The notes: a model not told the origin generated them from the letters alone. A stretch of DNA of 32,000 nt from Candidatus Lokiarchaeum ossiferum (GCA_025839675.1 CP104013.1:4470001-4502000), one strand, 5' to 3'; positions 5,030 through 31,257 are shown, counted from the stretch's first letter. Numbers and translations are program-made.

Positions 5030-5162
5030 TTTTTTATTCTTTTTAAAAGCATCAATCATAAGTTTTTTTCGAAATATTTCCAACAGAAATTTTCAAACTG
5101 AAACTAAAAGAGAAAAAAAAAAAGTTAATCCTTATAGAAATTGATTTTGGATTTGATAACTT

Positions 5163-6239
5163 ATGACTGAAGAAGAGAATGCAGCTCAAAAAGCTGCCGA
5201 AGAAGAAGCCGCTAAAAAAGCTGCTGAAGAAGAAGCCGCTAAAAAAGCTGCTGAAGAAGAAGCTGCTAAAAAAGCTGCTGAAGAAGAAGCAGCTAAAAAA
5301 GCTGCTGCAGAAGACGCTGCCAAAAAAGCTGCCGAAGAAGAAGCTGCTCAAAAAGCTGCTGAAGAAGAAGCCGCCAAAAAAGCTGCTGAAGAAGAAGCCG
5401 CTAAAAAAGCTGCCGAAGAAGAAGCCGCCAAAAAAGCTGCTGAAGAAGAAGCCGCTAAAAAAGCGAAAGATAAAAAAAAACAAGAAGAAGATAAAGATAA
5501 TCTTAAATTCTGTATGGGAACTAGTGATCTACTATTCAAGGTTCTTAAAGCAATTGATTTTAAGGGTGGAGAATGTTCAGTATCCTCATTAACTGTTGCA
5601 TTAATGTTAGATGAGAAAGTGTTCATTGATGGGTTAAAAACTGGTTTAATGTTGAATTTATTAGAGAAAGATGGCGATATTTTTGCAACAACCGATTTGG
5701 GTGATCGCTTGCTGAGTTTAAGTAGTGTAGAACAAAAATCCTTAATTGCGAAAGAATTTTTAAAAATTGAATCGTACCGAGATATTGTATTTCGGATGAA
5801 AATGGCGACTGGAAAAGAAATTCAGATCAAAGAACTTGAAAAAGCAATTTATATTATTTTACCTAATATTCGGGAAGAAATTCGGAAGCAAATTACATCT
5901 GCTTTCATTAATTTTGCAAAATATGCTAATATTATTGAAGAATTGGCACATGCGGGAAATCCAAGTGTTAAATTGACTACAAATGGTGAATCTCAATTGG
6001 ATGCGGTTCTTCAAGAACGAAAGCGGAAAAAGAAAGGGGGTGCAAGTTCAGGACCGTCTTCATCAAGTGCTCCAGCAATTGTTAGTGATTTATCTTGTCA
6101 ATCTTGTGGGAAACCTATTATGTCTGATTACAACATGTGTCCCTATTGTGGAACCGCATTGAAACGTTCTTGTTCGAATTGTGGCAAGGAACTTCAACCT
6201 GGGTGGAAAATGTGCCCATTCTGTGGTACTGCACAGTAA
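5163..6239 (+). CDS. Repeat protein: N-terminal (AEEEAAKK)n charged-alanine helical rod, central winged-helix-like region, C-terminal double zinc ribbon
   Basis: About 12 copies of an 8-aa AEEEAAKK unit are followed by a K/E/D linker. The central region LLFKVLKAIDFKGGECSVSSLTVALMLDEKVFIDGLKTGLMLNLLEKDGDIFATTDLGDRLL is wH-like. The C-terminus CQSCGKPIMSDYNMCPYCG...CSNCGKELQPGWKMCPFCG has four CxxC pairs, i.e. a DZR-type double zinc ribbon (6096-6236). Confidence 0.75.
   Translation: MTEEENAAQKAAEEEAAKKAAEEEAAKKAAEEEAAKKAAEEEAAKKAAAEDAAKKAAEEEAAQKAAEEEAAKKAAEEEAAKKAAEEEAAKKAAEEEAAKKAKDKKKQEEDKDNLKFCMGTSDLLFKVLKAIDFKGGECSVSSLTVALMLDEKVFIDGLKTGLMLNLLEKDGDIFATTDLGDRLLSLSSVEQKSLIAKEFLKIESYRDIVFRMKMATGKEIQIKELEKAIYIILPNIREEIRKQITSAFINFAKYANIIEELAHAGNPSVKLTTNGESQLDAVLQERKRKKKGGASSGPSSSSAPAIVSDLSCQSCGKPIMSDYNMCPYCGTALKRSCSNCGKELQPGWKMCPFCGTAQ
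5181..5464 (+). repeat. Tandem 24-nt coding repeat (consensus gctgctgaagaagaagccgctaaaaaa), about 11-12 copies
   Basis: Directly visible head-to-tail 24-nt units that differ mainly at synonymous third positions (gcc/gct/gca, gaa/gac). The repeat generates spurious ORFs in other frames and on the opposite strand. Confidence 0.95.
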
Positions 6240-6292
6240 GATTGATCAAAATGCCATAACTTTTTTACTTTCTTCTTTTTACAATTTATTTA

Positions 6293-6970
6293 ATGCCGAA
6301 ATATTATTCCACACCAAAATATGTGTCCATTGATTTGTTCGGAAAAGTTGATGTTGGAAAAACAACCATCTTTGAATTATTTGCTGGAACGCGGTTATTG
6401 AAAGATGGAGGCAATCTATCCTACGATTTTCGCACGTATTACGCGAAGTGTTGGGTTTTGCAGCAACGATGGGAACATACTATGGTTTTTTTGGCAGATC
6501 CAAAGTTAGAAATGCGATGGAAAGACCTTCGGGCTAAGCAACTGCGGAAACTTATGGAGCCTACCAACATTTTGATTTTAGTTACTGATTCAACCCTTGA
6601 AGATGTACGGTCCATTAAACAATCCTTCGAAATGTGGCCAAAAATTAAAAAAAAATTAATTATTTTTGTAATTGCCAACATGCAAGATAAGGAAGGACGA
6701 CTATCTGTAGAAGAAATCAAACAATTTCTTGAAATGAAAGATGTTATTGGAATTTCGGCGATTCAACCGGGAGCAAAGGAAAAAGTGGAACAATTCATTG
6801 AAGATGCTACTTTGCGTTTTTTTGGAATGCTGGCAAAACGGGGGCAAGCTCTATTGCTCTATGATGATGATGAAATTGGATTTGGAAAAACTCCAAAAGA
6901 GAAGAAATCTAAAAATGGGAAGTATTCTTCACGAATTAGAAAGTTACAAAAAAAACTCGATGAAAGTTAA
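6293..6970 (+). CDS. Small Ras-superfamily-like GTPase with atypical switch II and a polybasic C-terminal tail
   Basis: G1 P-loop GKVDVGKTT (6341-6367). G4-like ANMQD (NKxD variant). G5-like ISAI. The hydrophobic strand LILVTDS occupies the position of the post-switch-II strand. The expected DxxG is replaced by ADPKL. The tail reads GKTPKEKKSKNGKYSSRIRKLQKKL. Confidence 0.7.
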   Translation: MPKYYSTPKYVSIDLFGKVDVGKTTIFELFAGTRLLKDGGNLSYDFRTYYAKCWVLQQRWEHTMVFLADPKLEMRWKDLRAKQLRKLMEPTNILILVTDSTLEDVRSIKQSFEMWPKIKKKLIIFVIANMQDKEGRLSVEEIKQFLEMKDVIGISAIQPGAKEKVEQFIEDATLRFFGMLAKRGQALLLYDDDEIGFGKTPKEKKSKNGKYSSRIRKLQKKLDES

Positions 6971-6987
6971 TCTGTAGTGTCTCTTTT

Positions 6988-8193
6988 TCATATATTCGCA
7001 GATTTGGATAGAAGTTCTTGTTCAATATCCCGTTTTTCCCTGAATTTTTTTCGAAATATACTTAAAACTCCGAAAATCAGGAAATATCCAAGTATTATAA
7101 TAATTAGGGTTGTTTGGTGCGAATCTGCGAGTGTTATCATGTTCATTGCAACCCCAATGATAAAACCTGTAAACAATCGGCTGGAAGTGGTTGCTTTACG
7201 AATAAGTAATGCTTGTAATCCCCAATCTGTCAGTGGTAGCAAAGGTAATAATGCTGCAAACCAAAATGCCCATACTCCTGATATTTGTATTTCCAAACTA
7301 TAGGTAATCAATGAAATGATAAAAAATGTGACCGCGGCCCCCAAAATCATGGCTGTGCATCGAGTACATAGATAAACACGTACTTTTCCCAGTTGAATTA
7401 CTATGGTATGATCATCTTCAAAAAATGAATGATGGGTTAGACTTTGGACATAACATTCCCCTGGCTGAGGAAAATAGGATTTTAATTGTTCATCATCTTC
7501 ATTTTCTTCTTGTGCTACTAAGATGGCTTCTTCTTCTTTTGAAAGAGGAAAGTATGGGCTTAATAATCGATCCAGAATCCACAAACCTAACCATGATGGA
7601 ATAATAATCAACAAATTATTTACAAAGAAATTTGCTAATAATAGCCATCGCGCTGTATTAAGGGTCAATTCTGCTGTAAATGTAGTATTAAAAATAAATC
7701 CAAAAAATAATATTGGAAGAAAGAGCAGGAGTTGTGCTAAACTAAAGCCTATTTGTTTGAATACATGTTTTCCTTGATAATATTCGCCTCCTCTATATGG
7801 GCGAAAACTTTCCGCCAGAATACTCCATCCTACATAAACAATTAGTATCCATTGGATATTTGTAGAGTGAGTCCATTCTAGGAAAAATTCTCCTGCAATT
7901 CCCGCGAAAAATACTGCATATCGATTAAATATTTTTGCTAAAATCCACAAGATACAAAGCGAAATCCAAAATAGAATGTGAAAATGTAATAAAATTTGTG
8001 GATTTAGGGAATAGATCGTTAGATAATTAAGTGCTCTAATACCGATCGCAAGGAAATAATACAGCGAAAAGCTCAATAAAAATTCAAAGAAATAAAACAA
8101 ACTTTGCTCAAAGGCGCCTCGGTGAATATTTTTCAAAGGATCATGATGTCGTTTCAAAGGTTGAGCTATATTCGTAGATGAGTCCATTTTCAC
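6988..8193 (-). CDS. Polytopic membrane protein with C-terminal DUF2085-like module
   Basis: About 10 hydrophobic segments. The C-terminal part HHSFFEDDHTIVIQLGKVRVYLCTRCTAMILGAA ... PLTDWGLQALLIRKATTSSRLFTGFIIGVA resembles the DUF2085 pattern (H.SF...CaRCtG..lG ... DW..q...r.s.n..R..tG). This is recalled from memory. Confidence 0.5.
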   Translation of the reverse strand: MKMDSSTNIAQPLKRHHDPLKNIHRGAFEQSLFYFFEFLLSFSLYYFLAIGIRALNYLTIYSLNPQILLHFHILFWISLCILWILAKIFNRYAVFFAGIAGEFFLEWTHSTNIQWILIVYVGWSILAESFRPYRGGEYYQGKHVFKQIGFSLAQLLLFLPILFFGFIFNTTFTAELTLNTARWLLLANFFVNNLLIIIPSWLGLWILDRLLSPYFPLSKEEEAILVAQEENEDDEQLKSYFPQPGECYVQSLTHHSFFEDDHTIVIQLGKVRVYLCTRCTAMILGAAVTFFIISLITYSLEIQISGVWAFWFAALLPLLPLTDWGLQALLIRKATTSSRLFTGFIIGVAMNMITLADSHQTTLIIIILGYFLIFGVLSIFRKKFREKRDIEQELLSKSANI

Positions 8194-8212
8194 GGGATAA
8201 ATTTAGAAAGAA

Positions 8213-8917
8213 CTACGCGAAGTTATAAATATTATCAATCGCTATGTTAAACTCTTCAATTTTAGCATTAAATCCTTTCTGAAGAACTCGAAATATCATT
8301 GCTCGAGCAGCGGGCGAAGGAATGTCTAATATAGAAAGGTCTTCCTTAATAATATTCTGGCCTATAATCATATGATCCGTTTGGTCTTTTAAAATCGCTT
8401 TACATTCGTTAGCGGTTGGAAAAGCACATCGACATAATTCATAATAATCCTTCACATCATTTTCAATGGTTAAAAAGGGGTAGATTCCTAAAACTTGAGC
8501 TTCAAAGGTTTTCTTCAAATTTTCGCGCAATCGAGTGAAATTGGGATGGTTTTGTTTGCATTGTCGACCTGTTTGGTCATTTTTCAGATAACCCGGAAAT
8601 TTGTCTTCCAATCGTCGATAAAATTCTTCACTTTGGGGTTCCACTCCATCAATAACCATTTGTTTGGTCATTTTCAAAGTCCCATTTATACTTTTTCGAG
8701 TACCATGCTCTAAATCTTTTTGAACCATTTTTGAGTAAAATGCTTTAACAATAGGTCGTAAAAGAATCGAAATTCCACTCATTTCTTCATGAATTAGTTG
8801 ACTCCCAATATCTAAAGATGACTTCATCTGTTTAAATAGATGTTGACGCACGAGTTCAACATTGTGTTCAAGAGTATCAATGGAGATCGAAATTGGTGAG
8901 AGTGAAGAATTTATCAT
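8213..8917 (-). CDS. Hypothetical soluble protein (234 aa)
   Basis: Clean ORF, 19 nt upstream of the 6988-8193 gene on the same strand, so probably co-transcribed. No recognisable motif. Confidence 0.55.
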   Translation of the reverse strand: MINSSLSPISISIDTLEHNVELVRQHLFKQMKSSLDIGSQLIHEEMSGISILLRPIVKAFYSKMVQKDLEHGTRKSINGTLKMTKQMVIDGVEPQSEEFYRRLEDKFPGYLKNDQTGRQCKQNHPNFTRLRENLKKTFEAQVLGIYPFLTIENDVKDYYELCRCAFPTANECKAILKDQTDHMIIGQNIIKEDLSILDIPSPAARAMIFRVLQKGFNAKIEEFNIAIDNIYNFA

Positions 8918-8993
8918 CGTGCTAATAAATAATAATCCGTCTTTATTAAAAAAAGCATTTGATCATACTACGAAAAATAAATCAAGTTCATAT

Positions 8994-9719
8994 TTATGTT
9001 TCAGTATTTGGAGGATCGGGGTTTTCTGCATCAGAATCGCTCAAATTTTCCAATAAATCGGTACTCCAGTTTGAAATATCGATGGTGAGTTCAATATCAT
9101 CTTCATTGGGACATACTACTCGAATTGTCAATTGCTCCGCAGTTCTGTCAATGATTTCTGGAAAATGACAATCATCTGCAAGTTTAGAAACTATAAATCG
9201 AATATATGCTTCCGAGAAAACTGTTAAGGATCCTTGCAATATTTCCTCACCTAATCTTCCAATATGAAAATGGACTCGTTTACCCTTTCGTTCTTTCTCA
9301 ATCAATTCTGCATCGACTAACCGAACGGCATGGTGGCGAACTGAGTCATGATGAATATTCAATTCCCGTGCAATTTCATTTTGAAAGCAATCGGCATGAT
9401 TTAAGATATAGAGAAATATCAGTAATGCATTTTTATTTTTGATAAGCATAAACGCCCTTTCCATTTCTTTAGTACGTAAGTTTTTTGGAAAGAAGAGTCG
9501 TTTTCCATCTATTTTATCTGATTTTATTATGCCATCTTCCTCAAGTTTGCTCAAATGATATAGTAATGTTGCACTACTAATTTTTTCATCCCCTTGCGAC
9601 ATGAGCTTATAAAAATAAGTTCCAGGGTTTTCACAGATTATTTTGTAGATATTTCTCCTGGTTGGATGAAGTAAGAACAATTTTTCGTCAGAGTGGTGTC
9701 GCCGGGGCATATTTTTCAC
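8994..9719 (-). CDS. Transcriptional regulator with two tandem winged helix-turn-helix domains (ArsR/TrmB-like) and a C-terminal domain ending in an acidic tail
   Basis: wHTH 1: RRNIYKIICENPGTYFYKLMSQGDEKISSATLLYHLSKLEEDGIIKSDKIDGKRLFFP. wHTH 2: ALLIFLYILNHADCFQNEIARELNIHHDSVRHHAVRLVDAELIEKERKGKRVHFHI. Both show the helix-turn-helix plus beta-wing (G-K-R-x-F/H) pattern. Confidence 0.7.
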   Translation of the reverse strand: MKNMPRRHHSDEKLFLLHPTRRNIYKIICENPGTYFYKLMSQGDEKISSATLLYHLSKLEEDGIIKSDKIDGKRLFFPKNLRTKEMERAFMLIKNKNALLIFLYILNHADCFQNEIARELNIHHDSVRHHAVRLVDAELIEKERKGKRVHFHIGRLGEEILQGSLTVFSEAYIRFIVSKLADDCHFPEIIDRTAEQLTIRVVCPNEDDIELTIDISNWSTDLLENLSDSDAENPDPPNTET

Positions 9720-9746
9720 ACAAAGTTTTATTATTTTAGGATTTCT

Positions 9747-10184
9747 TTATTCTTCGAGCTCGATTCGTTCGAAAAATGGTTTTTTAACATGGGTTATTGA
9801 TGACATTTTTTCTTTAATTATATCAAATTTGGCATCAGTGTCTTCAAAAACGCCTTCCCAAACACAGATCTCGTCTTTGAAACAAATTCCTGTGGAAAAG
9901 AGGTTGGTAAGATCTAATTCTTTTAATGTTTTTCTCAATGATGTGAAAAATGATTCATTTAAGGAACTTTTATCCAAAATTAGTTTGACAAACAACACTC
10001 GAGAGGCATTCGTTAGAAAGAATGATAATTTCTTTGAATCTCCTGGAATGACTGCTACTAAATTTTGTCCCAAGGGAAGTAAAGCATCATATATTCTTTT
10101 CGGAATTTTTATTTCCTCAGACAGCTTTGCAATAAATGCTTGAGCTAACTTTTTTGATTCGTAATATTCCTTTTTATCATCCAT
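9747..10184 (-). CDS. Hypothetical small alpha/beta protein (145 aa)
   Basis: The track gives 9747-10247, but the first 21 codons (MWFLILPFDARFNMHFFQFNI) look like AT-rich read-in. I prefer ATG at 10184 (MDDKKEYY...). It lies 27 nt upstream of the wHTH gene on the same strand and is divergent from the 10321 gene. Confidence 0.5.
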   Translation of the reverse strand: MDDKKEYYESKKLAQAFIAKLSEEIKIPKRIYDALLPLGQNLVAVIPGDSKKLSFFLTNASRVLFVKLILDKSSLNESFFTSLRKTLKELDLTNLFSTGICFKDEICVWEGVFEDTDAKFDIIKEKMSSITHVKKPFFERIELEE

Positions 10185-10320
10185 GATATTAAATTGGAAG
10201 AAATGCATATTAAATCTTGCATCAAAGGGTAAAATTAAAAACCACAAAGCGTAAAATTAAATTATCGAAGAACCGAGTCGTTAAAATAAAAATAAGAAGG
10301 TCGAGGAAAAAACGCAATAT

Positions 10321-13300
10321 ATGTTTAGTTTCATAGTTCTTGGTGATTCAGCGGCAGCCGTTGATTATTTCGATCATGCTGGCCTTTCGAATATAGATCA
10401 AGGTGATATTTCGAAATGGGAAAAACAGTGCACCTTTCAAGATAATGAAATTGATTTGACCCTCGATGTTCCATTAACTGATGGGTTTGAATATGATGAA
10501 TTTTTACCGATGGCAGATGGTATTTTATACTTTCTAAACCCAAATTTTCCCGAACAATTTGCCTTATTTGAAGATATTGTTCAAATCATTCAGAAAATAA
10601 ATCGAAATGTACCCTTTGCTTTAGTTTTCCGGGATTCTAAACGTTTGATTCAAACCTCAACTAATCAATTACTATTTTCTATATGGGAAAAGTATTCTTT
10701 TGAAGCTTTTATCGCAGATTTAGGCAGTCCTAATTATACAGATTATATTTTGGAAAGTATTTGCGAGAGTATTATAACTCGCCAAGCCATTATTAATCTT
10801 GATACTGCTTGGATGCAGGTACCCTTATTATATTCAAAAGTAAATAGGCACATTAATACTCAAGATTGGATCTCTGCGGCCCGTTTGGTGGAAAAAATTG
10901 CACTTATTTCACAAAAATGTAAAAATTCTGATTGGCAAATTTATGCTGAACAAGCCGCTTGGTTATATGCAAAAGGTGGTGCAGTGTTAGATGCTTCAAA
11001 GATTATTGGTAATTTTAATGAAGTTTACGCTGAACGTTACAAAAAAATTTATGTGGATCAGTTAATTTATCAAGGTAGAGTTCTTCACAATGAGAAAAAT
11101 TTTGCCCAAGCTGCCCAACAATTTGAAACGGCGGGAAATTGGGCACGTTTCGAACTCAGTGATTCTATTTTAATTAAAAAATCCTTAAAAAATGCAATAT
11201 ATTCTTGGATCTCCGCTTGTGAAATTCAAAATGCTTTTTCTCTTTTGGAACGATTTGATCATAATGAAATGATTGATATTTTAGAAGAAGTTACTGACAA
11301 AATTGCTGGGGTTGCTGATTTTCTCACTTCTCAAGGGCAAGATGATTTTGCCAAAGCACAATTATATCTCTGTTTTCAAAAGTATCAAAAAGCGGGATTA
11401 TTTGATTCCATCAAAGTATTTGCTAACAAAACAGTTAAAATTCTTAAACGAATTTTAGAGCGACATCTGCGAAATCTGGATGTTGATTCTGCAAAATTGA
11501 CTCTTGACGAACTTTATAATATTTGGGAGACTTTTGGTATTGAATCTGAAAACATTGACTCGTATCTTTTGCGAGTTGGAACTTTATTTATCGAAAGGCA
11601 AGATTTTCAAAAAGTGGAAGTTATCCTTCCCAAAATTGAATCTGGTGAAATTAAAAATCAACTTTCAAAAGCTCGTATGGATGAAGAAGAACGGATTAAA
11701 TCAGATTTACGACAAGACGAATTGGAGGATTTAACCGATGCTGTCGCTATCCTTAAAACGTATGTAGATGAAGAAAAAAAACAAATTTTGGCATATAATA
11801 GTCAAGTATATCAAGAAACTCAAGATCTCCTCGAACAAAAGCAAATTTCGTCAGGTTTAAAATATATTCATCAATATTTTCAGTGGTTAACGTTTATTGG
11901 TGAATCTGAATTTTCTTATGATGTCTACGAGCGGATTCTCTCTTTTTATCTCACCTTGGGATCTTTTGATAAATTTATTGAAGAAATCTCCCATTTACCC
12001 GAAGGACGGAGAAAAGTGTATCTTCGGGAAAAAGTGTCGATTATTATTAATTCTTTGAACAATCTCATGGTGGATGGCGAGACTACATTGATTTTACACT
12101 ACTCAACTTCCATCATCAAATTATATCGAAATCACCTGCTTTATGATGAGTCTCGTGATTTTGCCGAACTCTTGGTCAAGTTTTTACTTGAAAAAAGTAA
12201 GACCATGGCTCAGCAAGGAATTTTAGCAAGTATCAGTGAATCTATCGGTCTTGTCTCTCAAGTTGAAAACATCTCAAAGATGTATTTGGATTCAAAACAA
12301 TTTGATTTGGATCCCATCTATTCCCCTATTGTTATTTTTTATATAAAAACTGCTGATTTCAAGGAAGCTCGAAAATACAATGAGCGAATTAATTCGGATT
12401 CTCTAAAAGAAACGTATTATTCACAAATTGAAGAAATCGTGGGCGAAAAAAGTCGATCCAAAGCGATGGAGGCTCAACAGAAACAAGAAGTCCAATTTTT
12501 CGTGGAGCAACTCTCGCAATTACGAAATTTGGCTCGAGATCAACGAATTACTTCTGAAAATCTGTTGCGAATGCGGTTAGGTTTAAGAAGACGGTATTTT
12601 CAAAAACCCATTGATCTTATTCTGAAGGGAGAGTTTCCAGACGCTGCTCAACAATATTTTGAAGTCGCAGAAACTTTGATTAAAACAAAGAAATTTGAAT
12701 TGGCAGGAATTAGTGCGGGTATAGGAACTATTCTCTGTCTTTTAGTAAAAAATGTTTCTCTTCTAAAAAATCACTTAGATAAACTTAATCTTATGGCTGG
12801 GGTATCCATTTCAATATTTAAAGAAATATTTTCCGTGAAACTAATCTATTACATTCTTAAAATGATTGAGATTAATAATCCAACGTTAATTATAAATTCT
12901 TTGAAGCTATACGAGAGTTTGGCCTTATTTCCTGAAGAAAAAATGGTCCTTGATACTTTACTTGGAAAAGATATTGATTTTGAAGCATTAGTTCATTCCG
13001 ATCTCAGTTCACGCATGGATTCAGGCGAAATTAAGTTTTCAACGAATCACCAGCATCTTATCGATAAAATCGCGTTTGATCCATCTCAACGATCAAAACG
13101 AAATTCCATTGAACAGAAATTTTGGGAAGAAGCACAAAATTATTTAGCCCGACAAGAATATGAACAAGCATCTTTAAGTTATTTAGCCCAAGTAGATCAC
13201 TTAGTCGTTCGCAATAATGAAAAATTTGCCATTATATCCATCGTAATGGCCTTTTTAGCCTTATTGAAAGCGAAAAAACCTGCAGAAGTTTATTTCGAAT

Positions 13301-14055
13301 ATGAAAAATTTTATTATCAATTTGATAAAAAATATGAACGCGTGGCAAAATCTGAATTATTTGCTTTACTTGAGATAATATTGCAATATTGGGTGAAAAA
13401 AAGTGCTCAACAGACGATTCGACAGATCCTTTTGGCATTTCAATCGAAATTGCCGTTATTTGATTGGGAATCTTCTCTAATTAGTGGCTTTTTAGGGGAT
13501 TTTGAAGGAAAAGGATCTCAAATTTCATCAAATACGGATAAGAATGTGCATCTTGGTTCTCCTGATGAATTTGATGATTCAACTCTTCAAACTCAGCAAA
13601 TTGTGGTTTTAACCCAAGAAATCAGTGATATGCAGTCGAATTTCGCTGAATTGCTCCATAAACGTAATTCAATGGTGAATTCTTATTATAAAGACATAAT
13701 TTCTTACCTGACCGCCGAATCCTATTTAGAGGCTGCTACTGAATATGAAAAGCTTGGGAAACGCATGGCACGACGAAATGATTTTAATGCTGCAAGTTTA
13801 ATGCTTCTCTTATCTCTGCTTTCACGCTTAAAACATAAACAATCGGTGAATGAAATCACTGTTGCCCTTGATACCGTCTTGGGAAAATTAGGAATAGTTA
13901 AAAAAATTCTTGACGATCACTTTGGAGTCAAAATCGCTTATTTTGTTCTGGATGTATTAAAATCTAAAAATGAAAACTTAAAAACAAATATCCGAAACCT
14001 CCTCCAATTATTACCGCTTCTATCTGCGGAAAAGGTACTTGTGCAGTTGGAATAA
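10321..14055 (+). CDS. Giant protein: N-terminal degenerate Ras-like G domain (pseudo-GTPase) fused to a ~1080-aa TPR/alpha-solenoid
   Basis: The N-terminal ~165 aa follow the small-GTPase strand/helix order with every nucleotide motif degenerated. FIVLGDSAAAVDYF stands for ivlGdsGvGKs. IDLTLDVPLTDGFEYDEF stands for v.l.iwDTAGQE. ADGILYFLNP stands for a.g.ilvyD. NVPFALVFRDSKR stands for ip..lvGNKxD. The rest has recurring helical-hairpin signatures of TPR/SNAP-like type (YQGRVLHNEKNFAQAAQQFETAGNW, KGEFPDAAQQYFEVAETLIKTKKFELAG, YLARQEYEQASLSYLAQ, YLTAESYLEAATEYEKLGKRMARRNDFNAAS). Confidence 0.6.
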   Translation: MFSFIVLGDSAAAVDYFDHAGLSNIDQGDISKWEKQCTFQDNEIDLTLDVPLTDGFEYDEFLPMADGILYFLNPNFPEQFALFEDIVQIIQKINRNVPFALVFRDSKRLIQTSTNQLLFSIWEKYSFEAFIADLGSPNYTDYILESICESIITRQAIINLDTAWMQVPLLYSKVNRHINTQDWISAARLVEKIALISQKCKNSDWQIYAEQAAWLYAKGGAVLDASKIIGNFNEVYAERYKKIYVDQLIYQGRVLHNEKNFAQAAQQFETAGNWARFELSDSILIKKSLKNAIYSWISACEIQNAFSLLERFDHNEMIDILEEVTDKIAGVADFLTSQGQDDFAKAQLYLCFQKYQKAGLFDSIKVFANKTVKILKRILERHLRNLDVDSAKLTLDELYNIWETFGIESENIDSYLLRVGTLFIERQDFQKVEVILPKIESGEIKNQLSKARMDEEERIKSDLRQDELEDLTDAVAILKTYVDEEKKQILAYNSQVYQETQDLLEQKQISSGLKYIHQYFQWLTFIGESEFSYDVYERILSFYLTLGSFDKFIEEISHLPEGRRKVYLREKVSIIINSLNNLMVDGETTLILHYSTSIIKLYRNHLLYDESRDFAELLVKFLLEKSKTMAQQGILASISESIGLVSQVENISKMYLDSKQFDLDPIYSPIVIFYIKTADFKEARKYNERINSDSLKETYYSQIEEIVGEKSRSKAMEAQQKQEVQFFVEQLSQLRNLARDQRITSENLLRMRLGLRRRYFQKPIDLILKGEFPDAAQQYFEVAETLIKTKKFELAGISAGIGTILCLLVKNVSLLKNHLDKLNLMAGVSISIFKEIFSVKLIYYILKMIEINNPTLIINSLKLYESLALFPEEKMVLDTLLGKDIDFEALVHSDLSSRMDSGEIKFSTNHQHLIDKIAFDPSQRSKRNSIEQKFWEEAQNYLARQEYEQASLSYLAQVDHLVVRNNEKFAIISIVMAFLALLKAKKPAEVYFEYEKFYYQFDKKYERVAKSELFALLEIILQYWVKKSAQQTIRQILLAFQSKLPLFDWESSLISGFLGDFEGKGSQISSNTDKNVHLGSPDEFDDSTLQTQQIVVLTQEISDMQSNFAELLHKRNSMVNSYYKDIISYLTAESYLEAATEYEKLGKRMARRNDFNAASLMLLLSLLSRLKHKQSVNEITVALDTVLGKLGIVKKILDDHFGVKIAYFVLDVLKSKNENLKTNIRNLLQLLPLLSAEKVLVQLE

Positions 14056-14196
14056 AGAACCCGGACTTTTTACTTTATTTTCTCTTCTACTCTTTCCAGT
14101 GAAAATTTAATGGGTAATGTTTGCTGAAATTCGAACGCGAATTCCTTTAGGTTTAAAGGACTTAGATCTCTTTACTAGGTAATTCTCGAAAGAAAA

Positions 14197-14204
14197 AGGT
14201 GATC
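14197..14204 (+). promoter_or_regulatory. Shine-Dalgarno-like ribosome-binding site (AGGTGATC) for the 14207 gene
   Basis: The 8-nt AGGTGATC ends 2 nt before the ATG at 14207. It is complementary to the conserved 16S rRNA 3' end (5'-GAUCACCU-3'). Weaker GGTGA cores sit before other starts, e.g. 17072-17076 before 17084. Confidence 0.55.
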
Positions 14205-14206
14205 AA

Positions 14207-15562
14207 ATGGGATTTATGGAAAAATTAAAAGAAAGTTTTTCTTCTGTGGCAGCGCAGATGAAAGAAAATACTAAACAACTTGAGAGTGTAATCAAAGAAA
14301 ACTCGGAATTATTGGATTCTCATGATAAACTCAGTAAAGAAAGTGCAGAGGGTATCTTAGAATTAAAGAAATATGGGGAAAAAGAAACTCCTCTCTTAAA
14401 AGATGCTTTTGTTGGTCTCTCAGAGACACTCAAAATGGTGGAAGGAGAACGTGCTAAGATGACTTCTGAATTAAGAAGTCAATTTTTACAACCTATGAAG
14501 GAATTAGTTGCTCAATTTGATCAATTAGAGCGCGAAATCAAAGAAGATGAATCTGCTGCCAAAAAATTGGCAAAAATTAAAAAGAAATTGGACAAAGAAA
14601 AAGCAAAACCGGCTGAAAAACAAAAACCGGGAGCGATTGAAAAAGCTGAAGCTGATTATCAAAATGCAGTCAAGATTGCTGAAAAGGAACATGATGATGT
14701 GATCAAGGCAACCGCTGCATATCAAGAACAAAAAATCAGGAAAATTAAAGAATGCTTGGCTGTGATTGTTGCCCAACATAAAGGTTTTCATCAAATTGTA
14801 CTATCGAATTTAACCGATACTAAAATGTATATTGAAATGATTGTGCCGGAACAGAAGGAAGAGGTCAAAGAAGCTATTGCAGAAACCCTTGAAAATCTGG
14901 AAGAATCGCTTAAAAGTTGTGATCAAATATATACTGTCATCGCCCATGTCAAAAAAGATTTACACTCCGTTATCAAGGAAAACATGGAAATGTTGAATGC
15001 TCACCTGAAAGTCACTAAAGAAAGTAAGGAAGGAATCAACGCTTTTAAAGATTATGGATTGAAAGAAAGTCCTGCTCTCGGTGAAGCTCTATCTTCTTTA
15101 GGGGGTTCACTTGAAATCATAGAAGTTAATAGACAAGCTTTTGTCGAACAAATGAATCATGAATTTATTCGCCCCCTAAAAGAATTGATTGATACTTGGG
15201 ATAAACTCCGAGAATTAATCAAAAAAGATGTTAAATCGCTTAAAAATGATCAGAAAATAGTCCGAAAACTCGAAAAATTGAAAATGCAAGATCCTACAAA
15301 ATTGAAACCTGGTTTATTGGAGGAAAAGGAGAAGGAAGCTGCGTCTATTCGAGATGCGTCTACGAAATTGCACAAATCAATGCTCACATCCTATCAAGAA
15401 TTCACTGCTGCTAAGTCTAAAACCATGAAAAGTTGCTTAGGGTCAATGGTGGAGCGCAACTTAAAGTTTCATAATCAGGCTTTAAATATTATTGATAATG
15501 CAGAAATTTTAGTCTCACAAATTGATATTTCAAAAGAAATGGATTATGAATTGGACATTTAA
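14207..15562 (+). CDS. Tandem BAR-domain-like protein (two ~225-aa three-helix units; the first has an N-terminal amphipathic helix)
   Basis: Internal duplication with a 227-aa offset: S27-VIKENSELLDSHDKLSKESAEGILELKKYGEKETPLLKDAFVGLSETLKMVEGERAKMTSELRSQFLQPMKELV versus S254-VIKENMEMLNAHLKVTKESKEGINAFKDYGLKESPALGEALSSLGGSLEIIEVNRQAFVEQMNHEFIRPLKELI. Each unit matches remembered endophilin/amphiphysin BAR patterns: a ...FGrELG...ALgevGEam..L.evkd.ld.evkqnFidPLq.L block, a K-rich Kkl...r.dyd.kkk segment, and a terminal helix VAQHKGFHQIVLSNL / MVERNLKFHNQALNIID resembling vqAQleYHkQAvqIL. The N-terminus MGFMEKLKESFSSV is amphipathic. Confidence 0.6.
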   Translation: MGFMEKLKESFSSVAAQMKENTKQLESVIKENSELLDSHDKLSKESAEGILELKKYGEKETPLLKDAFVGLSETLKMVEGERAKMTSELRSQFLQPMKELVAQFDQLEREIKEDESAAKKLAKIKKKLDKEKAKPAEKQKPGAIEKAEADYQNAVKIAEKEHDDVIKATAAYQEQKIRKIKECLAVIVAQHKGFHQIVLSNLTDTKMYIEMIVPEQKEEVKEAIAETLENLEESLKSCDQIYTVIAHVKKDLHSVIKENMEMLNAHLKVTKESKEGINAFKDYGLKESPALGEALSSLGGSLEIIEVNRQAFVEQMNHEFIRPLKELIDTWDKLRELIKKDVKSLKNDQKIVRKLEKLKMQDPTKLKPGLLEEKEKEAASIRDASTKLHKSMLTSYQEFTAAKSKTMKSCLGSMVERNLKFHNQALNIIDNAEILVSQIDISKEMDYELDI

Positions 15563-17083: not shown

Positions 17084-18440
17084 ATGCCAATGGCTGAATT
17101 TACAGATTTACTGACCCAACCTTGGGGGGTTTTTGATGGAGTTGATATCGAGAAGTATATCATCGGAACCTATATTGTCAAAGTCGGAAAAAAACAAAAT
17201 GGACTTACTATGGGACAGTTCGCGGCTGTCGAACAAAGCACCGGAACATGGATTCGTGTTCCTGCTGAAACCGCGGAAGTACGCAAAGATCATGTGGCCA
17301 AATTATTAGGTTGCTATGAAATTCCTAATTGGGAATATGAAATTCCAAAGGATGTGGAAAGTCGCGATTATGTAATGATTATCGGCTGGCCTAAGGTCAA
17401 CTTGCTCAATGAAGATAATAAATTGAACTTTGCTCTCCTCTTTACGGCTTTAATCGGCAATATTTCCATGGGTGGCAAACTCAAACTCATGGATATTTGG
17501 TTTCCCAAAGATATTTTGGCTACCATGCCTGGACCGAAGTTTGGAATTGAAGGGATTCGCAAATATCTTGGAATAGAAAAGCGACCTTTGCTCAATAACA
17601 TGATCAATTAAGAATAGGATTTCCCTATCTTAGATTAAACCGTGTACTGGGCATACGGCTGCTGTCGCTGGTGATTTAGCTTACCAAGTCGCTCTTGGAG
17701 GTGTGGATGTTGTCAAGGATGATGAACTTATCTCCGGGCACGCGTTCAATACCATTGAAGATCGTGTCACTGCCGTTATGGCGGGTTTAGATAAAGCCAA
17801 AGAAGAGACCGGTGAGAAGACTATCTACATGATCAACGTCACCGACAATCTTCCCAAAGTGTATGACAATATTGCAACCGTTCAAGCCCATGGGGGTAAT
17901 GGTATTCTTATTAACTATTTACCACAAGGTCTCTCCGTCGTTCAACATATTGCGGAAGATCCAAGCGTCAAAATCCCAATTCAGATGCACATGGATTTCG
18001 CCGGAGTATGGTATTGCGATGCGTGGAGTGGCGTTACCAGCAAACTTACGCTTGGTAAATTGCCCCGATTAGTGGGTGGGGATGTAGTTGTTATGCCTGC
18101 TCCTTATGGTAAAGCTCCAGTGGTACCTGAACGATTTATTCAAAATGCTATGGAATGTGTATATCCTTTACCTGGCATTAAACCGATGATGCCTATGCCT
18201 AGCGGTGGCATAACTCCTGGTATGGTCGAATTTGCCATGCGAGATATTGGATCAAACATCATGATTGGTGCTGGTGGTGGAATTCATTCTCACGAGATGG
18301 GACCAACATCTGGAGCCATTGCCTTCCGTCAAGCCATTGATGCCTTTATGGCCTGTATTCCTGCCAAGAAAGCGGCCAAAGAACACAAAGAGCTTGGTGT
18401 GGCCATGGGTATGTGGGGCAGCAAAAAAACTGGCAAGTAA
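17084..18440 (+). pseudogene. RuBisCO large-subunit-like protein (form IV/RLP-type active site) interrupted by a 31-nt insert. As encoded it splits into 17084-17611 and 17634-18440
   Basis: N-terminal half: AAVEQSTGTW (aaESSTGTW), LIGNISMG (GNvfg), EKRPLLNNMI then stop. C-terminal half, in the +1 frame from 17634: IKPCTGHTAAVAGDLAYQVALGGVDVVKDDE (iKPKlGl...GGlDf.KDDE), YGKAP (loop-6 GK), PSGGITPG, GAGGGIHSH, GAIAFRQAID. Removing 17606-17636 restores RPLLNNMI-KPC with the same RPLL-to-KP spacing and the same 26-residue K-to-K(DDE) spacing as spinach K175/K201. The track start at GTG 17703 is an artefact of the split. Confidence 0.85.
17606..17636 (+). other. 31-nt self-contained hairpin insert interrupting the RuBisCO-like gene
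   Basis: aattaagaataggatttccctatcttagatt folds as 13 bp: 17606-08 with 17636-34, G17633 bulged, 17609-12 with 17632-29, A17613 bulged, 17614-18 with 17628-24, loop AUUUC. It contains UAA (17609-11) in the upstream frame and UAG (17631-33) in the downstream frame. Boundaries can slide by up to +2 nt (AA/AA). Confidence 0.8.
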
Positions 18441-30846: not shown

Positions 30847-31257
30847 ATGATCAAAGGTTTGCAAATCTGTGATTCGAAGGGATTTCCAATTTATACTCGA
30901 ACCGCAAATAATTTTACTGGGATTAATGGGACATTAATGAGTGGTTTAATTTCTGCCATCGGTGTCATGGGAAAAGAGTTGTTTAAACAAAATATTGCAA
31001 ATATCACATTTGGGGAAGGTAGTAATACTTCCTATCTCACGATTATTAGAAAAGAACTGTTTAAAGAAAATAAATCCATTGATTTTGTATATTTTTCGGA
31101 GCAGAAGTGTGATTTAGCATCATTAAATAATATTTCCACAACAATTTTTATAGATTCAAAACGAGATTTAATTGATTCTTCAAAAGTTAGGGATGATTTA
31201 AAGCCTCGCATTAATAAAATTATTGATTTGAACTTTCTTGAGATATTTCAAGATTAA
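30847..31257 (+). CDS. Small alpha/beta protein, possible Roadblock/longin-like (SNARE-like fold) regulator
   Basis: The N-terminal pattern MIKGLQICDSKGFPIYTRT....INGTLMSGLISAIGVMGKELF...IANITFGEG..YLTII recalls the i.g..i.d..G.p.......d..l.sGfl.Ai..f..el....i..i pattern of small archaeal longin/roadblock-type proteins. The size of 136 aa fits. Confidence 0.35.
   Translation: MIKGLQICDSKGFPIYTRTANNFTGINGTLMSGLISAIGVMGKELFKQNIANITFGEGSNTSYLTIIRKELFKENKSIDFVYFSEQKCDLASLNNISTTIFIDSKRDLIDSSKVRDDLKPRINKIIDLNFLEIFQD

Follow-up and report, generated by a model that had tools for sequence, protein, structure and literature searches.

A conserved gene cluster encoding a putative pseudo-GTPase scaffold together with an orphan helical and a DUF2085 membrane protein, with a recurring GTPase neighbor, in Lokiarchaeia-type Asgard archaea

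A 32,000-nucleotide (nt) stretch of DNA from Candidatus Lokiarchaeum ossiferum (CP104013.1, 4470001–4502000; GC ~33%), referred to here as the window, was analyzed around positions 5163–15562, where an annotation made from the DNA alone (the sequence-only reading) had proposed that neighboring genes encode a GTPase-switched membrane-shaping machine. The 451-amino-acid (aa) protein encoded at 14207–15562 is 100% identical to NEF87_003839 of this organism, and the adjacent 1244-aa protein, G, is NEF87_003838. Three genes of the region, C, D and G, were found to stay together across related genomes, and a GTPase gene recurs beside them. On balance, we lean toward the reading that C-D-(E-F)-G plus a GTPase is a vertically conserved cluster of Lokiarchaeia-type Asgard archaea that would encode a membrane-anchored, GTPase-regulated scaffold. 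The genes concerned are as follows.

B, 6293–6970, plus strand: 225 aa; atypical small GTPase with a polybasic tail; likely accessory member.
C, 6988–8193, minus strand: 401 aa; polytopic membrane protein with a C-terminal DUF2085; core, presumed anchor.
D, 8213–8917, minus strand: 234 aa; all-helical protein from an orphan family of Asgard archaea; core partner of G.
E, 8994–9719, minus strand: 241 aa; tandem winged-helix protein of HVO_0163-N / ArsR-MarR type; branch-specific.
F, 9747–10184, minus strand: 145 aa; invariant C-x5-C-x-WEG motif; branch-specific.
G, 10321–14055, plus strand: 1244 aa; residues 1 to ~155 a Ras-like pseudo-GTPase domain, the remaining ~1050 aa a probable TPR-like helical scaffold; core.

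The gene coordinates and gaps proposed earlier were reproduced: 53 nt between A and B, 27, 76 and 19 nt in the minus-strand unit (19 nt from D to C), and 151 nt between G and H, where A and H are the outer neighbors treated below. The convergent genes B and C are separated by 17 nt and the divergent genes F and G by a spacer of 136 nt. Gene calls and the homologue alignment favor the ATG at 10184 as the start of F, which shortens the protein from 166 to 145 aa.

G loci were collected by a pattern scan in which a single genome stood for each GTDB species; it yielded 103 confirmed loci in as many GTDB species genomes. Of these, 80 were fetched, and synteny was counted over 79 related species-level loci by tblastn of the window proteins and clustering of open reading frames (ORFs). 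Individual loci are cited below by L numbers. Counts for D include loci with at least 1.5 kb of sequence upstream, those for C at least 4.5 kb upstream, and those for the GTPase f4 at least 3 kb downstream of G. D is found upstream of G, read the other way, in 72/72 loci; in 65/66, C comes next after D and shares its strand. The D–G spacer is mostly 100–300 nt long, and a second D paralogue (D') is present in 57 loci.

Two arrangements were recognized. In the first, C, D, E and F are read divergently from G; it occurs in the window and in L004–L009, L026, L043 and L088, L008 being a Promethearchaeum sp. The second (~70 loci) consists of a winged helix-turn-helix (wHTH) gene, one or two genes for transmembrane (TM)/zinc-ribbon proteins, a hydrolase gene, C, D and D', all on the strand opposite to G, followed by G, by TFB on the opposite strand and by a GTPase gene (f4) on the strand of G, two genes downstream of it. 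C, D and G are the sole genes retained together between both arrangements and the differently flanked loci L004, L005, L006/L009, L008 and L043. The trio was dispersed neither by insertion of E and F nor by that of a radical-SAM gene in L006/L009, and its proteins have median identities of 45–55%, compared with 89% for TFB. Adjacency and orientation are thus conserved amid differing neighbors for C-D-G and not for the pairs G–H and A–B. This retention amid differing flanks is a stronger argument than the locus counts. Co-localization exceeds chance for C-D-E-F-G and more weakly for B; for A, H and I (described below) it does not. The functional linkage suggested earlier for the whole region consequently stands, as conserved synteny, for C-D-(E-F)-G plus a GTPase and falls for A, H and I.

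Two further genes were noted in the second arrangement. As represented in L029 (4505–6049 and 6126–6611; f5 and f13), they encode membrane proteins of 514 and 161 aa with terminal zinc ribbons. In most loci of this arrangement they lie, with the tandem wHTH gene f7, on the same strand upstream of C–D, and all three may belong to the same operon as C–D. The window holds no equivalent of f5 or f13, the soluble zinc-ribbon protein A possibly excepted. The class labels of some records are doubtful: L019, L034, L037, L044, L065, L070, L076, L079 and L080 are named Hod-, Hermod-, Thor- or Odinarchaeota. These NCBI labels were not trusted, because the records share the same long gene order, ~89% TFB identity and 88% identity of acetyl-CoA synthetase (ACS) with records labeled Lokiarchaeota or Promethearchaeota.

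The N-terminus of G had been called a pseudo-GTPase, and structure prediction confirmed the call. An AlphaFold2 model of residues 1–190, based on 24 homologues, reached a predicted local distance difference test score (pLDDT) of 89.4 and a predicted template modeling score (pTM) of 0.84. Its topology, β1-α1-β2-β3-α2-β4-α3-β5-α4-β6-α5, is canonical for Ras. Foldseek returned 936 matches in the PDB at E<1e-3 (best ~3e-7), with Rab33, RalA, Rap1b and KRAS at the top (probability 1.00, template modeling score 0.6–0.7). In the model, strand β1 (residues 2–8) runs almost straight into helix α1 (from residue 10), the P-loop being deleted. None of the G1, G3 and G4 motifs (GxxxxGK[ST], DxxG and NKxD) is conserved in an alignment of 27 G orthologues. 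Because the Ras fold is present while these motifs and the P-loop are missing, the domain was assigned as a pseudo-GTPase. Compared with the Ras-superfamily GTPases (Rab/Ral/Rap/Ras), residues 1 to ~155 have the six strands and five helices and hundreds of Rab/Ras structure matches, but the P-loop is cut to one residue between β1 and α1, the motifs are not conserved and the domain is followed in the same chain by ~1050 aa of probable helical repeats. Pseudo-GTPase domains are known in eukaryotes from CENP-M, the pG domains of p190RhoGAP and the dynein light-intermediate chain.

No kinship of the G N-domain to any GTPase was detectable at the sequence level, and its profile–profile comparison with the f4 GTPase family gave a probability of 1%. 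A link to IFT22/RabL5 was considered. This was the best PDB profile match, at a non-significant E=1.4, with a shared DGIIY.NP motif; it was dropped because IFT22 was not among the top Foldseek matches. The body of G (residues ~190–1244) is probably a TPR-like helical solenoid. TPR matches were obtained for orthologues (TPR_2 at 1e-7 and TPR_12 in L029, PF07719 in P0025); the window protein itself has no Pfam or NCBIfam match, TPR included, and the full-length G profile found no match in the PDB. Full-length homologues reach down to 26% identity.

The core partner D is modeled as a bundle of eight helices (pLDDT 89.7, pTM 0.85). Its fold has no match in the PDB at E<0.001, the best being E=0.19 with a template modeling score of at most 0.38; heme-oxygenase-like, TenA and BAR folds were rejected as relatives, with E near 1 and scores below 0.4. 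At the sequence level, D has no significant PDB match, no Pfam or NCBIfam match and no relationship to the G profile. The family comprises 612 clusters, none with a Pfam domain; an exhaustive hidden Markov model (HMM) search gave 149 clusters at 50% identity, and all named ones are Asgard. Invariant residues concentrate in a DQTxxQCxxxHxNY motif. D is thus confidently predicted to be a helical bundle of an orphan Asgard family that has no known relative. Distantly related genes of the D superfamily were located as tandem pairs in L090 (9319–10660), L098 (1636–2952), L100 (5229–6741) and L091 (10001–11535). Winged-helix genes of TrmB type adjoin the pairs of L091 and L100, and an Arf/Ras-like GTPase is encoded close by in L091. 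A 1016-aa gene near a Helarchaeota D-like pair was examined and is not a homologue of G. Within the reach of these searches, the G-linked cluster appears confined to Lokiarchaeales-type genomes.

The assignment of C as a DUF2085-like polytopic membrane protein was confirmed above the Pfam cut-off (PF09858, 41.4 bits against 25; 2e-10). Its orthologues also match this family, which has no known function. C differs from other DUF2085 proteins in carrying an N-terminal multi-TM region, with weak resemblance to an ECF S-component, and sometimes an alpha/beta hydrolase fusion. An alpha/beta hydrolase gene is a regular neighbor of C in the second arrangement, and C is fused to the neighboring 168-aa hydrolase in L010–L012, L023, L034, L047 and L080 (~522 aa). 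In L005 (5275–7593), C is fused to an alpha-L-fucosidase domain (757–772 aa).

In both arrangements a GTPase gene accompanies the cluster. In the window this is B, described earlier as a small GTPase with a polybasic tail. The G1 (GKVDVGKT), G4 (NMQD) and G5 (SAI) motifs, all invariant in four orthologues, and the polybasic tail uphold that description; the aberrant G3 (DPKL, not DxxG) and the HMM scores below family cut-offs (Pfam Arf 16.7 bits vs 22.3; small_GTP 21.3 vs 42.5) do not. In the PDB, Arl proteins match at E 0.3–0.8. Judged by its motifs, B is plausibly a divergent small GTPase, its membership not being fully proven. C is adjacent to B, or one gene off, in 8/9 loci (the window, L088, L004, L005, L008, L092, L093 and L095). 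In the second arrangement the GTPase is f4, a 412-aa protein matching Gtr1_RagA (2e-21) and Arf (4e-20), which was found in 59/63 loci. An f4-type GTPase also lies directly after G in L005, where H stands in the window. B and f4 were compared and are not orthologous.

The branch-specific genes E and F keep an unchanging position between D and G in 9 loci of the first arrangement. Pfam matches (HTH_HVO_0163_N 4.5e-13, HTH_20 and MarR_2) confirmed E as the tandem wHTH regulator it had been taken for, and it aligns weakly but collinearly with the f7 wHTH gene of the second arrangement. The nine F orthologues always lie between E and G, and F has no Pfam, NCBIfam or PDB match. Within the 136-nt F–G spacer, at 10228–10262, two copies of the direct repeat G(G/C)GTAAAATTAAA stand 23 nt from each other. 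It is also found in the sister species L088 and is unrecognizable in more distant relatives. It could represent TATA-like elements or an operator for E.

Three further genes had been drawn into the earlier proposal.

A, 5163–6239, plus strand: 358 aa; (EEAAKKAA)n low-complexity region and C-terminal double zinc ribbon; mere neighbor.
H, 14207–15562, plus strand: 451 aa; tandem BAR protein (CIBAR/FAM92-like); lineage-specific neighbor.
I, 30847–31257, plus strand: the former Roadblock/longin candidate; no profile support.

H is a tandem BAR protein, as had been suspected. In a profile built from six homologues, residues 253–445 and 49–212 match the BAR domain of CIBAR1 (FAM92A) at 8.6e-11 and 7.9e-10, and the halves share 33% identity with one another; H alone scores 20.0 bits against Pfam FAM92 (cut-off 23.6). 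Each half aligns over ~190 residues with the BAR domain of CIBAR1/FAM92 proteins (PDB 9uhd and 8ceg). Those proteins are homodimers, whereas H has two BAR units in one chain, and this tandem arrangement suggests an intramolecular pseudo-dimer. Its homologue clusters number only six, all Lokiarchaeum-like, and carry precomputed PF06730 or PF16746. A 42%-identical paralogue (L087, 10001–11356; precomputed PF16746, BAR_3) stands between a PAS protein, a CitMHS transporter and a PAS-histidine kinase; L087 is from the same sample as L001. The tandem-BAR family is thus small and limited to Lokiarchaeum-like organisms. Vps5-BAR homologues have already been reported in Asgard archaea (Eme et al. 2023, PMC10307638).

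The G–H pair (10321/14207) are neighbors only within the species and in an 87%-identical sister species, and the A–B pair (5163/6293) only in that sister species. There (L088), SDR, A, B, C, D, E, F, G, H and a methyltransferase gene are all collinear with the window. In L004, whose G is 44% identical, G runs straight into a 94-aa gene and a RuBisCO-like gene, which in the window stand after H and the methyltransferase; both of the latter are missing from L004. The presence of H and the methyltransferase at this site is therefore specific to the lineage and is most simply explained by an insertion. The strong Shine-Dalgarno sequence attributed to H was verified (AAGGTGATC 4 nt before the ATG; GGTGATC). 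As a T-rich tract follows the stop codon of G and H has its own Shine-Dalgarno sequence, a separate H transcript is suggested. H and A are genus-level neighbors and not parts of the cluster.

The double-zinc-ribbon description of A holds. A tandem repeat at 5172–5464 (27 nt × 10.9 copies, 90% matches) encodes (EEAAKKAA)n, and Pfam DZR matches at 7.7e-11. The repeat also creates long spurious ORFs at 5052–5483 (minus strand) and 5179–5592 (plus strand). For I, sequence-level searches found no Pfam, NCBIfam or PDB match, Roadblock/LC7 and longin included, and at that level the Roadblock/longin label is not supported. Most other domain calls of the sequence-only reading, namely those for A, C, E, the N-terminus of G and H and, on its motifs, that for B, were sound. 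Beyond H, the RuBisCO-large-like gene of the window (17084–18440) is split into ORFs of 175 and 245 aa in different frames, with ~60 nt containing stop codons between ...RPLLNNMIN* and IKPCTGHT..., while the L004 orthologue is intact at 441 aa. A sequencing error is not the cause, since the 87%-identical sister species L088 shows an identical 619-nt offset. The two readings are a conserved pseudogene and a recoded gene.

The cluster reading would assign the following roles. The core would consist of G, a scaffold of ~1240 aa with a loop-less Ras-like domain, D, a helical bundle of 220–234 aa, and C, the polytopic membrane protein with DUF2085. D and C share one orientation, are tightly spaced and diverge from G across a short region that would serve as a shared promoter. 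In the Lokiarchaeum/Promethearchaeum branch, E and F would have been inserted between D and G, with B tail-to-tail with C. C would anchor the assembly in the membrane, D may bridge C to G, and the TPR-like body of G would provide a platform for partners. The GTPase (B in the window) would switch the assembly on or off and might do so by binding to the Ras-like domain of G, which is nucleotide-free. From the earlier parts list, a pseudo-GTPase scaffold, a membrane protein and an active GTPase are retained on synteny; curvature generation and membrane shaping are not.

Several observations weigh against this reading. Second-arrangement loci are closely related to one another (medians of 89% identity for TFB, 88% for ACS and 45% for G) and, because they also share common housekeeping neighbors, amount to few independent observations. 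The solenoid character of G draws solely on TPR matches in its orthologues, the window protein having no Pfam match, and the pairing of pseudo-GTPase and GTPase is purely our conjecture. B is not next to C in L094, where its neighbors are neither C nor D, and it is absent from the flanks of the 29–30%-identical relatives L006/L009. Since B is convergent with C, the two genes cannot be co-transcribed. Moreover, distant D-like genes, often in tandem pairs, occur without G or C in L090, L091, L098 and L100.

The close relationship of the second-arrangement loci, which also keep TYW1, PNP, TFB and ACS as neighbors, could mean that the adjacency of C, D and G is simply gene order inherited within one archaeal class, without a functional link. 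Asgard GTPase genes have in addition been reported as generally not in operons with partners (PMC10933270). Nevertheless, G, D and C evolve fast, yet they alone stay together when other neighbors differ; their orientation is invariant, their divergent spacer is short, and insertion of E/F or of the radical-SAM gene left the trio together. We consider mere inheritance unlikely. A purely transcriptional link, in which E (f7 elsewhere) and D act as a sensor/regulator pair controlling G and the membrane protein with no physical complex, would suit the position of E beside the divergent promoter of G, the wHTH gene in both arrangements and the repeated association of distant D-like genes with TrmB-type wHTH genes (L091, L100). 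However, D directly abuts G in most genomes, where the wHTH gene stands five genes off, and D has no DNA-binding or known ligand-binding signature, which makes such a regulatory cassette rather improbable.

The membrane-shaping machine as proposed, joining A, B, C–F, G and H (5163–15562) with 30847 and taking H as the curvature module, has genuine parts. H is a true tandem BAR protein, B a plausible GTPase, C a membrane protein and G a pseudo-GTPase scaffold, all adjacent in two Lokiarchaeum species. The G–H and A–B adjacencies are nevertheless limited to genomes 87–100% identical. Neither H nor the methyltransferase is present in L004, although this locus is collinear with the window; the paralogue of H has unrelated neighbors, and 30847 is without Roadblock evidence. 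The T-rich stretch after G and the Shine-Dalgarno sequence of H also point to separate transcripts. The machine is largely refuted by synteny and was judged very unlikely. A long TPR array behind an N-terminal P-loop-fold domain resembles STAND proteins, and an anti-virus defense system of the NTPase-plus-TPR (STAND-like) type was therefore considered. Here the P-loop of G is deleted, and G, D, C, B, F and H have no PADLOC match, the sole match being of the generic HTH of E to Csa3/CARF-HTH models. G is furthermore a single-copy gene with a stable chromosomal context in ~80 species, unlike variable defense islands. A defense role deserves almost no credence.

The cluster can be compared with known partnerships of small GTPases. 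In eukaryotic trafficking, Arf/Arl/Sar GTPases pair with alpha-solenoid effectors such as coat adaptors, or Arl2 with TBCD. The window likewise has a plausible small GTPase gene beside genes for a large, probably helical-repeat protein and a membrane protein, and the polybasic tail of B would suit membrane binding. G has no homology to any coat or adaptor subunit, however, and the likeness, known here from genes, is an analogy only. Within Asgard archaea, a conserved neighborhood of LAMTOR1-like Roadblock, Rab-like GTPase and DENN genes has been described (Liu et al., bioRxiv 10.1101/2020.10.19.343400). Both cases represent a conserved Asgard pairing of a small GTPase with putative regulator or scaffold proteins, but the present one involves a giant that joins a pseudo-GTPase domain to a probable TPR body, together with the orphan helical protein D and the DUF2085 protein C; Pfam and NCBIfam detected no Roadblock, longin or DENN domain in the cluster proteins.

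The searchable literature yielded no description of this cluster and nothing relevant on pseudo-GTPases in Asgard archaea or on the NEF87 locus tags. It is conceivable, though doubtful, that C-D-G and the GTPase (B or f4) form an undescribed membrane-bound GTPase–effector complex, in which a pseudo-GTPase platform is recruited to, or released from, a DUF2085 anchor by a small GTPase. If true, this would be an archaeal counterpart of the GTPase-recruited alpha-solenoid adaptors. The analysis also documents a single-chain tandem BAR protein in an archaeon, and removes as unsupported the tempting link of this BAR protein to a GTPase–scaffold machinery. The cluster is present in both cultured Asgard genera, Lokiarchaeum and Promethearchaeum, and is thereby experimentally tractable. 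Asgard archaea have many small GTPases, whose partners are difficult to predict since these genes seldom lie in operons (PMC10933270). The cluster offers a concrete, conserved set of candidate partners, namely a pseudo-GTPase scaffold, a helical orphan and a presumed membrane anchor, and so makes it possible to test what archaeal GTPases act on.

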